Below, in pieces: positions 57,409 through 59,497 of a stretch of 64,000 bases of DNA (positions are counted from its first letter, which is position 1; each line of letters opens with the position of its first letter). Origin of the DNA: Armatimonadota bacterium (GTDB taxonomy: Bacteria > Armatimonadota > SYMT01). Below the pieces are notes generated by a model, which had not been told where the DNA came from, searched no databases, and saw only the letters and a program-made list of their open reading frames with translations. The translations under genes were made by a program, and so were the position numbers. Location of the stretch: assembly GCA_041690135.1 (NCBI GenBank), contig JAWLHY010000010.1, positions 224,001-288,000 of the forward strand. Reading direction: 5' to 3'.

Positions 57409-58488
57409 TCACGGCTTTCCTTCACGGCTTTCTTTAACAGCCAACTGGCCGCATGCGGCGTCGATATCCTGGCCCCGCTCCACTCGCTGCGTGGTCGAGA
57501 TCCCATAGCTCTCCAGCACGCTCCGGAAGGCCCGCACGCGCTCCCGGGACGGCGCCTCGAACTGCCCGAACGAGGCCGTTGGGTTCCACGGTATCAGATT
57601 CACGTGTGCGATCAACGGCCGATCCGGCCCCCGGACGAGGCGGGCAAGCTGGTGGGCGTGCTCCACTTCGTCGTTCACCCCGGAGAGGAGAAGATACTCC
57701 AGGGTGACCCGGCGTCCGGTTTTCTCCGTATAGCAGCGGACCGCCTCCATCACGTCTTTCACCCCCCACTTACGCGACATCGGAATCAGCTTCTCGCGGA
57801 GTTCGTCGTTAGGCGCGTGCAGGGAAAGGGCCAGGGTCACGGGGATCCCTTCTTCCGCCAGCTTCCGGATCCCCGGAACGTGTCCCGCCGTGGAGACGGT
57901 GAGGTGACGGTAGGAGAGCCCCACCTCTTCATGCAGGAGCCGGAGCGCGCGAACCAGGTTGTCGTAATTGATCATCGGCTCACCCATGCCCATGACTACA
58001 ACATGGGTGACGCGCCCTTCCGGAGCATTCTCGGCGGCGGTGAGGACCTGGTCCACGAACTCCCCCGGCGTGAGATTCCGACCGAAGCCCATGGTGGCCG
58101 TGGCGCAGAAGACACAGCCGACCGGGCACCCCACCTGGCTGGACACGCACACGGAGGTCCGGTCCTCGTACGGCAACATCACCGTTTCGATGCTCCGGTT
58201 ATCCGGGAGGGCCAGGAGCAACTTTTGTGTGCCGTCGCGGGAGGCCTGGCGCCGCGCCACCTCCGCCCGGCCGACCTGGAACCGCTCCGCAAGCCGCCGA
58301 CGGAAATCCGCCGGTAGATCCGTCATTTCGTCGAACGACCGGGCACCCTTGCGGTAGATCCAGGCGGCCAACTGCCGACCGCGATACCGGGGCTGGCCCA
58401 GCGATTCCACAACCGCCTCCAGTTCCGGCCGCGTTTTGCCCAGCAGAGGCTCCAGCGCCACCGGGGCCTCCAGTACCTGTAGTTCCAT
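57409..58488 (-). CDS. rlmN: 23S rRNA m2A2503 radical-SAM methyltransferase
   Basis: 'CVSSQVGCPVGCVFCAT', 'MGMGEP', 'SLHAPN', 'VNLIPWN', 'DIDAACGQL'. Confidence 0.96.
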   Translation of the reverse strand: MELQVLEAPVALEPLLGKTRPELEAVVESLGQPRYRGRQLAAWIYRKGARSFDEMTDLPADFRRRLAERFQVGRAEVARRQASRDGTQKLLLALPDNRSIETVMLPYEDRTSVCVSSQVGCPVGCVFCATATMGFGRNLTPGEFVDQVLTAAENAPEGRVTHVVVMGMGEPMINYDNLVRALRLLHEEVGLSYRHLTVSTAGHVPGIRKLAEEGIPVTLALSLHAPNDELREKLIPMSRKWGVKDVMEAVRCYTEKTGRRVTLEYLLLSGVNDEVEHAHQLARLVRGPDRPLIAHVNLIPWNPTASFGQFEAPSRERVRAFRSVLESYGISTTQRVERGQDIDAACGQLAVKESREGKP

Positions 58489-58669
58489 CTCTCCCTCTCC
58501 CGTTGCCCACTCCGGTCTCGCCGCCATCGGCGGCTCCGCGCGGCCCGCCCGCCCATTATAGCGCGCCTGCCACCCGTACCCTCTTACCCAGCCATGCCTC
58601 ACCCGGCGCGGGCCTCTGTCTTGCCACTTTCTCGGTTCCGAAAGCCGGAAAAAAAGGCCGGCGCCGCGT

Positions 58670-58698
58670 TTGACGCCCCCACCGACCGCCGGTATCAT
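58670..58698 (+). promoter_or_regulatory. Sigma70-type promoter
   Basis: TTGACG-N17-TATCAT. Confidence 0.7.
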
Positions 58699-58704
58699 GA
58701 CTGT

Positions 58705-58840
58705 ATCAAAGGAGGTGATGACTTAATGGATCACAGTCGTCGAGGTGGCTGTAGGAGTTAACCACCTACTACCAGACTGGGGTGAACTCCTAAATCCAAC
58801 CAGTTCACCGGCGGGGGACCCTTCGGGGTCCCCCGTATTG
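58705..58840 (+). ncRNA. Candidate structured sRNA, possibly dual-function with an 11-aa sORF (58726-58761, MDHSRRGGCRS)
   Basis: Promoter upstream; four consecutive hairpins, the last a 10-bp stem with a cUUCGg loop; AAAGGAGGTGAT at the 5' end. Confidence 0.55.
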
Positions 58841-58949
58841 CTGTACAATGGAAAGCGGCGGGTGGTCGCACGCCGAGCATCCGTACGCAAGGAGATTGCT
58901 CCGGCCCCTCCGTGGGTAGACCAGAGCAGAGTCGCAGGGAGGTACGAAA

Positions 58950-59153
58950 ATGAGCATGGGATCGCCCATCAACCCGTCTGAACCGGAGTCCGAAGAGGAC
59001 GAGTACGAAGAAATCAATATCGACGTCACGGAAGAAGGCGAGGTGTGGGTCCACGGGGAGGATTGGGAACTGAAGTTCAGCCCCGAAGAGGCCCGCCAGT
59101 TGGGGCAGGCCCTGCTGGACGCCGCGGACGACGCGGAGAACCCCACCGAGTAA
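58950..59153 (+). CDS. Small acidic hypothetical protein
   Basis: GGAGG RBS; 67 aa, 'LKFSPEEARQLGQALLDAA'. Confidence 0.7.
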   Translation: MSMGSPINPSEPESEEDEYEEINIDVTEEGEVWVHGEDWELKFSPEEARQLGQALLDAADDAENPTE

Positions 59154-59169
59154 CGCCGCCGCCCGTATC

Positions 59170-59367
59170 TCACACCATCCCGGAAAGCACGCTGAGCGCC
59201 TCCCGGAGGCGCTCGCGTGCTTCTTCCACCCGTTCGAGCACCTCTTGCTTTTGGGCGGTATCCGAGGCCTCAAGGTCCATAACGGCTTTGCGGAAGCGGT
59301 TGAGGTCCTGCAGGATCCGGTTACCGTCTAGGTAGACATCGTTCTCAGCTGCCATCGCTCGGGTCAT
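59170..59367 (-). CDS. Small helical hypothetical protein
   Basis: AGGAG RBS; 65 aa coiled-coil-like; convergent with the previous gene. Confidence 0.65.
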   Translation of the reverse strand: MTRAMAAENDVYLDGNRILQDLNRFRKAVMDLEASDTAQKQEVLERVEEARERLREALSVLSGMV

Positions 59368-59497
59368 CTGCTCCTGGACGTCCGGATGTTGGCATCCGGA
59401 CCCGATTCTGGGTGCTCCCTATCCCAAGAGTGGCTTGCCGAATCCCGGGTCACCCCTGGGAAGTCGGACGGCACTCCTTCGCCTCAGGTTCACAAAT

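Follow-up and report, generated by a model that had tools for sequence, protein, structure and literature searches.

An RNA unit divergent from rlmN

The window analysed here is a stretch of 64,000 nt from the genome of an Armatimonadota bacterium (G000). On its minus strand lies rlmN, identified by the Pfam domains RlmN_N and Radical_SAM, and on the plus strand a small RNA unit is read away from it, as an initial annotation made from the letters of the window had described. The GC content of this locus is 0.47 at 58700-58799, compared to 0.65 genome-wide. When a 141-nt stretch was folded, a z-score of -3.66 was obtained and 1 of 200 shuffles was equally stable. A sequence search found the unit once in its own 9.1-Mb genome. 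The low GC content, the fold z-score and the conservation across dozens of genomes show that the RNA unit is real and more than chance.

A sigma-70-like promoter was predicted at 58670..58698 on the plus strand. Its -35 box TTGACG (58670-58675) and its -10 box TATCAT (58693-58698) are separated by 17 nt and match the consensus at 10 of 12 positions, in line with the near-consensus promoter of the initial annotation. It was the sole promoter-like site found in 58300-59400, where 0.1 is expected from shuffles. An UP-element-like tract of 7 A (58649..58655, plus strand) is located just upstream of the -35 box. The complement of this A-tract and of a GC hairpin overlapping the -35 box gives a terminator-like match on the minus strand (58677..58660). 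This sequence at 58660-58677 could also end an antisense or upstream transcript.

The first element of the RNA, here called SD1, is AAAGGAGGTGAT at 58708..58719, no more than about 10 nt from the predicted 5' end. The 16S gene of the host itself is unassembled; four short conserved rRNA motifs gave no match in the 25 contigs of the 9.1-Mb assembly. The 16S 3' end was therefore taken from 7 rRNA copies of 4 relatives, where it reads ...GGCTGGATCACCTCCTTTCT. The 12-mer is hence its exact Watson-Crick complement over 12 nt, as had been claimed. It occurs twice in the 9.1-Mb genome, and the other copy lies in coding-looking sequence.

SD1 is followed by the hairpin P0 (58717..58741), formed by GATGACT at 58717-23 and AGTCGTC at 58735-41, with an ATG in its loop. 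This ATG at 58726 opens a mini-ORF of 11 codons that ends with TAA at 58761 (58726..58761) and reads MDHSRRGGCRS. Both hairpin and frame had been recognised in the initial annotation. Inside the frame a second SD-like element, the in-frame GAGGTG at 58742..58747, was found and named SD2. The 5' strand of a helix P1, GGTGGCTG, follows at 58744..58751, and the 5' strand of a helix P2, TAGGAGTT, at 58752..58759, where it spans the final sense codons plus the stop's first base. The 3' strand of P2, AACTCCTA, is at 58785..58792. Then come an unpaired, semi-conserved junction between P2 and P1, AATCCAAC (58793..58800), and the anti-SD-like 3' strand of P1, CAG-T-TCACC (58801..58809). Immediately 3' of it lies a terminator (58812..58840), a GC-rich hairpin CGGGGGACCC-TTCG-GGGTCCCCCG whose T tail is weak. 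The 10-bp C(TTCG)G hairpin that had been read as the end of the unit was found at 58812-58835. All these elements are on the plus strand. The predicted transcript is about 135 nt long in the window's copy and about 130-300 nt over the family.

Comparison with the 15th release of Rfam gave no hit. With the covariance models of Rfam 15 at the gathering score, the whole window had 0 matches, and a sensitive scan of 58500-59000 at E<=10 also gave 0 matches, the Csr/Rsm families included. This check, which the initial annotation had proposed, matched no described family. The view that the locus holds a structured RNA unit which stands alone, is unannotated and carries both a tiny frame and a site where the 16S tail can dock was borne out.

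Downstream of the RNA, on the same strand, lies an ORF for a very acidic 67-aa protein with its own SD (58950-59153, plus strand). It was also found 3' of the element in G004, G006 and G001 by tblastn (35-53% identity) and at no other locus searched. The four genomes with this ORF, G000 among them, belong to the window's own family.

In 4 sequencing runs the matches were contigs, and the only one from an RNA library is a 180-nt Logan contig of a rhizosphere metatranscriptome (run X5) that covers 58663-58771. Across the promoter and the RNA's first 70 nt it departs from the window at 1 base, and its upstream sequence is different. From this near-identity we conclude that a close relative is present in that sample. 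Since the contig of this RNA library includes the promoter, it shows nothing about the start site, and it is silent on the transcription level.

A single-copy family in the Armatimonadota

The conservation in relatives, another check proposed in the initial annotation, was analysed by blastn against 40 related genomes. The core of the element (window 58709-58766) was found in 11 of them, belonging to several families (E<=0.01). Ten full-length copies were aligned with MAFFT (alignment A1) and a covariance model, R1, was built. Of 151 genomes sampled from the phylum, R1 matched 42, each of them once; the matches in G120 and G035 turned out to be coding sequence on reading. A sequence-only model of the 5' module, R2, was then made from 52 copies (alignment A3). 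R2 matched 86 of the 151 genomes at E<=0.01 and 58 at E<1e-5. In 84 of the 86 genomes the match was single, and the second matches in G047 and G062 were weak and partial. No R2 match was obtained in 65 of the 151 genomes, including all 4 of f9, all 4 of f20 and all 7 of f29. When 20 further, mostly weak matches were inspected, the full layout was present in all 20. For a control, 151 Chloroflexota genomes were searched with R2. This gave 4 matches at E<=1e-3, all of them covering the SD and start part only.

A degenerate pattern was scanned against one genome per species and returned at least 121 stretches at no fewer than 80 loci. Among the pattern matches listed, 18 loci were confirmed by model and by reading; 16 belong to lineages named Armatimonadota, Armatimonadetes or Chthonomonad*, and 2 are named just 'bacterium'. 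The listed loci of Saccharibacteria, Ventricola, Synechococcus and Gaiellaceae were coding sequence, and on reading the matches L102, L061, L080 and L072 were ordinary coding sequence as well. A limited search of the Armatimonadetes small-RNA literature found nothing relevant. We conclude from these comparisons of sequence that the RNA family, which has no Rfam match, is real, conserved and single-copy across much of the Armatimonadota, and that it appears confined to this phylum as far as searched.

The anatomy was counted in 72 distinct members. A promoter with at least 9 of 12 consensus matches was found at the same relative place in 60 of them. Four or more consecutive A occur in the 25 nt that precede the -35 box in 26 of these 60, compared to 14 of 329 control windows. 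All 72 keep a frame of 10-14 codons, with 11 codons in 47, 10 in 8, 12 in 4, 13 in 7 and 14 in 6. It starts with ATG in 64, ATT in 6 and TTG in 2 members. The stop is TAG in 40, TAA in 19 and TGA in 13 and always occupies the same structural place, inside a predicted local hairpin in each of the 71 testable members. The terminator follows 40-190 nt downstream of the frame. Its hairpin with a T-rich tail was found by a script in 52 of the 72 and was seen by eye in some others.

SD1 is complementary to the 16S tail over 9-18 contiguous nt when G.U pairs are included; the mode is 12 nt, and the mean predicted duplex energy is -19 kcal/mol. The complementarity extends to 14 nt or more in 19 members and to 16 nt or more in 5 (G092, G071, G059, G034 and G047); the number with at least 17 nt is also 5. 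The start codon is usually 5-8 nt past the duplex, and in the window's copy the ATG is 6 nt past it. An ATT or TTG start abuts the duplex directly only in G092, G057 and G071. Three families of the phylum have mini-ORFs with an ATT start (L030/G057, L033/G092 and L220, L227, L230, L231, the latter four being G115, G124, G062 and G106). In G057 and G092 this ATT directly follows a 16S-complementary stretch of 13 nt and 18 nt, respectively. ATT starts are rare in bacteria, infC being an example. An extension of the 16S pairing to a split site at AATCCAACC was considered and dropped because the 16S of the relatives, GGCTGGAT, mismatches and the junction motif varies. A proposed mimicry of 16S helix 45 was dropped as well, the resemblance being one of low complexity.

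SD2 is mostly GAGGTG and is the strongest in-frame binding site for the anti-SD, with a mean of -11.7 kcal/mol over the 72 members. From its 3' end to the stop there are 9 nt in 50 members, and in 69 the distance falls within 6-10 nt. Of the 13 members with 13 or 14 codons, 10 have the usual distance of 9 nt, and two others also carry GAGGTG there. The length of the frame varies mainly upstream of SD2. Since the spacing from SD2 to the stop is fixed, the last sense codon lies about 6 nt past SD2, which equals the modal spacing from SD1 to the start codon.

In-frame SD-like signals are also used at the frameshift sites of prfB (+1) and dnaX (-1). Like these, the element is placed in frame at a fixed distance to a stop or shift site, is followed by structure and would act via the anti-SD. 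In contrast to them, no conserved slippery sequence is present here, all three stops are used and there is no extended frame, because the terminator follows within 40-190 nt.

The initial annotation had favoured a sponge RNA that titrates CsrA/RsmA. In favour of this, GGA occurs in two of the predicted loops of the window's copy and also within its SD1. CsrB and RsmZ are likewise small, structured, stand-alone RNAs with purine-rich GGA motifs. A search of the host genome, which is 97% complete, with the CsrA profile PF02599 gave 0 matches, whereas the same search was positive in 3 control genomes. This answered the question of csrA raised in the initial annotation. In addition, the GGA of the first loop (A-TGGA) is kept in only 27 of the 72 members and a GGA near the stop in 5, and the median is 3 GGA per RNA. 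Unlike in CsrB and RsmZ, the loop GGAs are few and unconserved, and no Csr/Rsm family of Rfam was matched at E<=10. The proposal is contradicted by these results, and we regard a CsrA sponge as extremely unlikely.

The conserved fold and the independence of the unit

To obtain the common structure, A1 was folded with RNAalifold. This gave P0 with the ATG in its loop, the long-range helix P1, P2 nested in P1, and the terminator. P1 pairs GGTGRCTG with CAG-N-YCACC, in the window 58744-51 with 58801-09. The GAC/GTC core pairs of P0 are kept in all ten sequences of A1, where the ATG is invariant in the loop and the other loop bases vary. Covariation was counted in a second alignment, A2, in which 24 sequences were aligned to the model. 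There 96.4% of the cells were paired, compared to 74.1% in shuffles and 39-50% with slid partners, and 21 of 26 pairs changed on both sides. For the single helices, 96.6% of the cells were paired in P0 with 2 of 3 pairs changing on both sides, and 97.3% in P1 with 4 of 8; the pair 82-240 is AU in 8, GU in 8 and GC in 6 sequences. In P2 6 of 6 pairs and in the main stem of the terminator 7 of 7 changed on both sides. As A2 leans towards the model, we also cite A1, which was aligned by MAFFT and not fitted to any model; it gives the same helices.

The fold of the initial annotation contained two further hairpins. The first, AGGTGG at 58743-48 with CCACCT at 58762-67, is there in the sequence and is specific to this genome. 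The other, GGTGAACT at 58781-88 with AGTTCACC at 58802-09, is also there, and by eye it recurs only in G004. The complementarity of TAGGAGTT (58752-59) and AACTCCTA (58785-92), offered as an alternative pairing, was confirmed. Since the relatives conserve this helix together with the long-range P1, the conserved fold corresponds to what had been called the alternative.

The pairing of SD2 in P1 is not universal. In the f22 branch of a Chthonomonas-like subtype the helix begins after GGTGA and leaves SD2 unpaired, as seen by eye. In minimum free energy (MFE) folds of 52 single sequences the 3' strand of P1 paired with SD2 in 24 and with SD1 in 14. Most of A1's 10 sequences have an AATCCA-like motif in the junction; in the Chthonomonas-like subtype it is replaced by TTTTAGCC and GGTCATGAAC. 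This subtype (L010, L012, L031, L034, L041, L049, L060, L081 and others) has a longer insert after the stop in which the two motifs are conserved, and by eye its repeated GCCTG segments could pair with the end of the ORF in several ways that exclude one another. One Chthonomonas-like branch carries a hairpin CTATCC-GTGA-GGGTAG. A reading of GTGATGA as a K-turn or C/D box was rejected, as the sequence is unconserved and many members have GTGGTGG.

A promoter, a short frame, alternative hairpins and a terminator in this arrangement are reminiscent of a leader-peptide attenuator, in which the ribosome would control the transcription of a downstream gene in cis. We therefore surveyed the neighbours at 29 loci by a Pfam scan of 145 frames. 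Some of them are compatible with such a role. The 67-aa ORF comes next on this strand in G000, G004, G006 and G001, greA lies downstream on the same strand in G086, G063 and G039, and a gene like lysyl- or asparaginyl-tRNA synthetase is next in G086 and G039. Over the 29 loci, however, the downstream genes differ, and they are convergent in at least 6 (e.g. G007, G005, G017, G008, G023 and G016). The neighbours vary likewise, with rlmN in G000, G001 and G003, genes for an NYN-domain nuclease with TPR in G008, G023 and G016, greA in the three genomes named, and rsgA, gatB, archease and an RNB exonuclease at single loci. At loci L014-L043 the neighbours are often related to RNA or translation, which is at most a hint.

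The frame contains no codon run for one amino acid. The terminator persisted in 44 of 52 MFE folds of the full sequence and, once the part covered by the ribosome was masked, in 45 of 52. Translation-controlled antitermination found no support in the MFE folds of the 52 members. The closest comparison is the leader-peptide attenuator RNA rnTrpL/peTrpL of Sinorhizobium, also a small terminated RNA with a translated 14-codon frame and alternative hairpins, which can act off-locus (PMC6614838, PMC7298713). In contrast to that RNA, which lies upstream of trpE(G) and carries Trp codons, no constant downstream gene, codon run or predicted antiterminator was found here. A cis attenuator is very unlikely by these results. 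Since the neighbouring genes vary, the RNA is, as judged from its predicted signals, an independent unit transcribed separately and not a cis leader.

Proposed engagement of the ribosome

What is conserved in the frame was examined at the level of nucleotides and residues. The codons AGT CGA GGT are nearly invariant in A1, while residues 2-4 and the last three (9-11) vary freely. The conserved core S/Q-R-G-D/G is encoded by nearly invariant, otherwise rare codons, which are those that form P0, SD2 and P1. In G064, G052 and G098 the motif GGAGG(T/G) is kept and read in a shifted frame; the ORF still has 11 codons and gives S-Q-R-R-x-G. G040, G106 and G024 are without the Arg. These observations bear on the reading as a micropeptide gene, in which the 11-residue peptide with its S/Q-R-G-D/G core is functional and the RNA fold only tunes its synthesis. 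It would account for the frame, start and stop that are kept in 72 of 72 members and for the R-G-[DGE] present in most. The sORFs of rreB and rreR, two alphaproteobacterial RNAs considered below, are regarded by their authors as conserved small proteins, according to the available part of that paper (PMC5711450). The freely varying residues, the placement of the conserved ones on rare codons within P0, SD2 and P1, the members that keep the nucleotide motif in another frame and those that lack the Arg all argue against a functional peptide, and we consider this reading improbable. The initial annotation had also named a micropeptide mRNA or a ribosome decoy as options. They came nearer than the sponge as far as the frame is concerned, which is kept throughout; the peptide itself is not conserved.

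Dual-function sRNAs such as SgrS/SgrT, RNAIII/hld and SR1/SR1P combine a folded RNA and a translated small frame on one short transcript, as is the case here. Their peptides have 26-43 aa and are conserved as proteins, whereas in the present family it is the nucleotides rather than the residues that are conserved. Since frame, start and stop are always kept and the peptide varies, selection seems to act on translating a frame of set length over a set RNA and not on its product. We infer that the selected product is the encounter of the RNA with the ribosome.

Another possibility is a non-coding regulatory or protein-binding sRNA, in which the 5' SD serves only as a stabiliser: a ribosome sitting there would block decay in the 5'-to-3' direction, and the frame would be no more than a harmless by-product. 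In its favour, the genome encodes an RNase J homologue (TIGR00649, 581 bits versus a cut-off of 400), and the motifs AATCCA, TTTTAGCC and GGTCATGAAC are conserved and unpaired. In addition, ribosomes that initiate at a strong SD block RNase J1 on the hbs mRNA of B. subtilis, as the accessible part of that study reports (PMC5737220). Given the RNase J homologue, a bound ribosome could also shield the 5' end of the present RNA. However, a start codon and a stop at a fixed distance from SD2 would be needless for a stabiliser, yet they are kept in 72 of 72 members. The comparison with rreB points the other way too, since in the portion of that report at hand the removal of the start codon raised the stability (PMC5711450). 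We assign this reading, too, a low probability.

The best explanation, which we hold to be moderately probable, is a short transcript of its own that is built for ribosome engagement, a ribosome-binding mini-mRNA of the rre type. This nearest described kind had not been named in the initial annotation. The strong promoter is predicted to drive the transcript. SD1 near its 5' end would pair with the free 3' tail of the 16S, as its complementarity suggests, and place the ribosome at the start codon, which is found in the loop of the small predicted hairpin P0. The ribosome would read 10-14 codons and in doing so would have to open P1 and P2. With the stop in the A site, SD2 would be about 6 nt upstream of the P-site codon, the same spacing as from SD1 to the start codon. 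From this geometry, a terminating ribosome might be held again via its anti-SD at SD2. The opening of P1 would free the anti-SD-like strand, which may then pair with SD1. Such an RNA would be expected to report on or modulate the availability or turnover of ribosomes.

An RNA of this type is rreB, a 165-nt sRNA of Bradyrhizobiaceae with an RpoD-like promoter (Hahn et al., RNA Biol 14:1353, PMC5711450). The following is taken from the available part of that paper. rreB and rreR are both about 165 nt long and have 16-17 nt of 16S complementarity. In rreB 17 nt are complementary to the 3' end of the 16S, extending to the GTG start codon's initial nucleotide, and the sORF has 14 codons in rreB and 18 in rreR. 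rreB binds strongly to 30S and is weakly translated. Its start codon lowers the RNA stability, and its overexpression had no effect on growth, so even the model case gives no function; the function of the rre RNAs is described there as unknown (PMC5711450).

The present family resembles the rre RNAs, as far as they are described in that part of the paper, in several respects (PMC5711450). Its short RNA would be transcribed separately, from a predicted sigma-70-type promoter to a predicted terminator, and it has a 5' stretch complementary to the 16S 3' tail and a predicted conserved fold. The sORF is very short, with 14 or 18 codons there and 10-14 here, where the residues are conserved in part. 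The genomic context is unconserved beyond close relatives in both, and in a few members here the 16S complementarity is 17-18 nt long and adjoins a start codon other than ATG.

There are also differences. The phylum is a different one and no sequence relation is claimed. The complementarity of the window's copy, 12 nt, is below the 16 nt or more of the rre RNAs, and its ATG 6 nt past the duplex looks like an ordinary, strong and efficient ribosome binding site and not like one that suppresses translation, whereas in rreB the duplex extends into the GTG start. The peptide is poorly conserved here, and 30S binding has been shown for rreB, compared to predicted duplex energies for the present RNA. 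A second SD fixed to the stop and an anti-SD-like strand are not mentioned for the rre RNAs in the available part of the paper (PMC5711450). Since the window's copy lacks two defining rre features, we filed it as working like an rre RNA and not as a member of that family. The RNA family may be viewed as rre-like ribosome-binding mini-mRNAs in a new phylum, with a likeness in design.

The breadth of the family argues for a general ribosome-centred role and not for an oddity of one lineage. Small mRNAs with an over-long SD have been published only for Alphaproteobacteria, according to the part of the rre paper available (PMC5711450), and the same design may now be recognised in a distant and little-studied phylum. 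The family supplies about 70 divergent examples and two testable features, the second SD that is fixed to the stop and the internal anti-SD-like strand. It also suggests that genes of 10-14 codons, which are reported by no gene caller, can be under clear selection. The element was found in Chthonomonas among the pattern matches listed. Chthonomonas is a genus with a cultured species, so that an isolate carrying the element may be obtainable.

A more far-reaching version of the ribosome-binding mini-mRNA, which we regard as unlikely, is a phylum-wide 'ribosome-parking' RNA. Here SD1 would dock a ribosome, SD2 would dock it again at termination and the anti-SD mimic would toggle between SD2 and SD1, such that the RNA would act as a sensor or buffer of free ribosomes, initiation factors or termination capacity. 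If this were true, the family would represent a class of housekeeping riboregulators, which would also explain the enigmatic rre RNAs.
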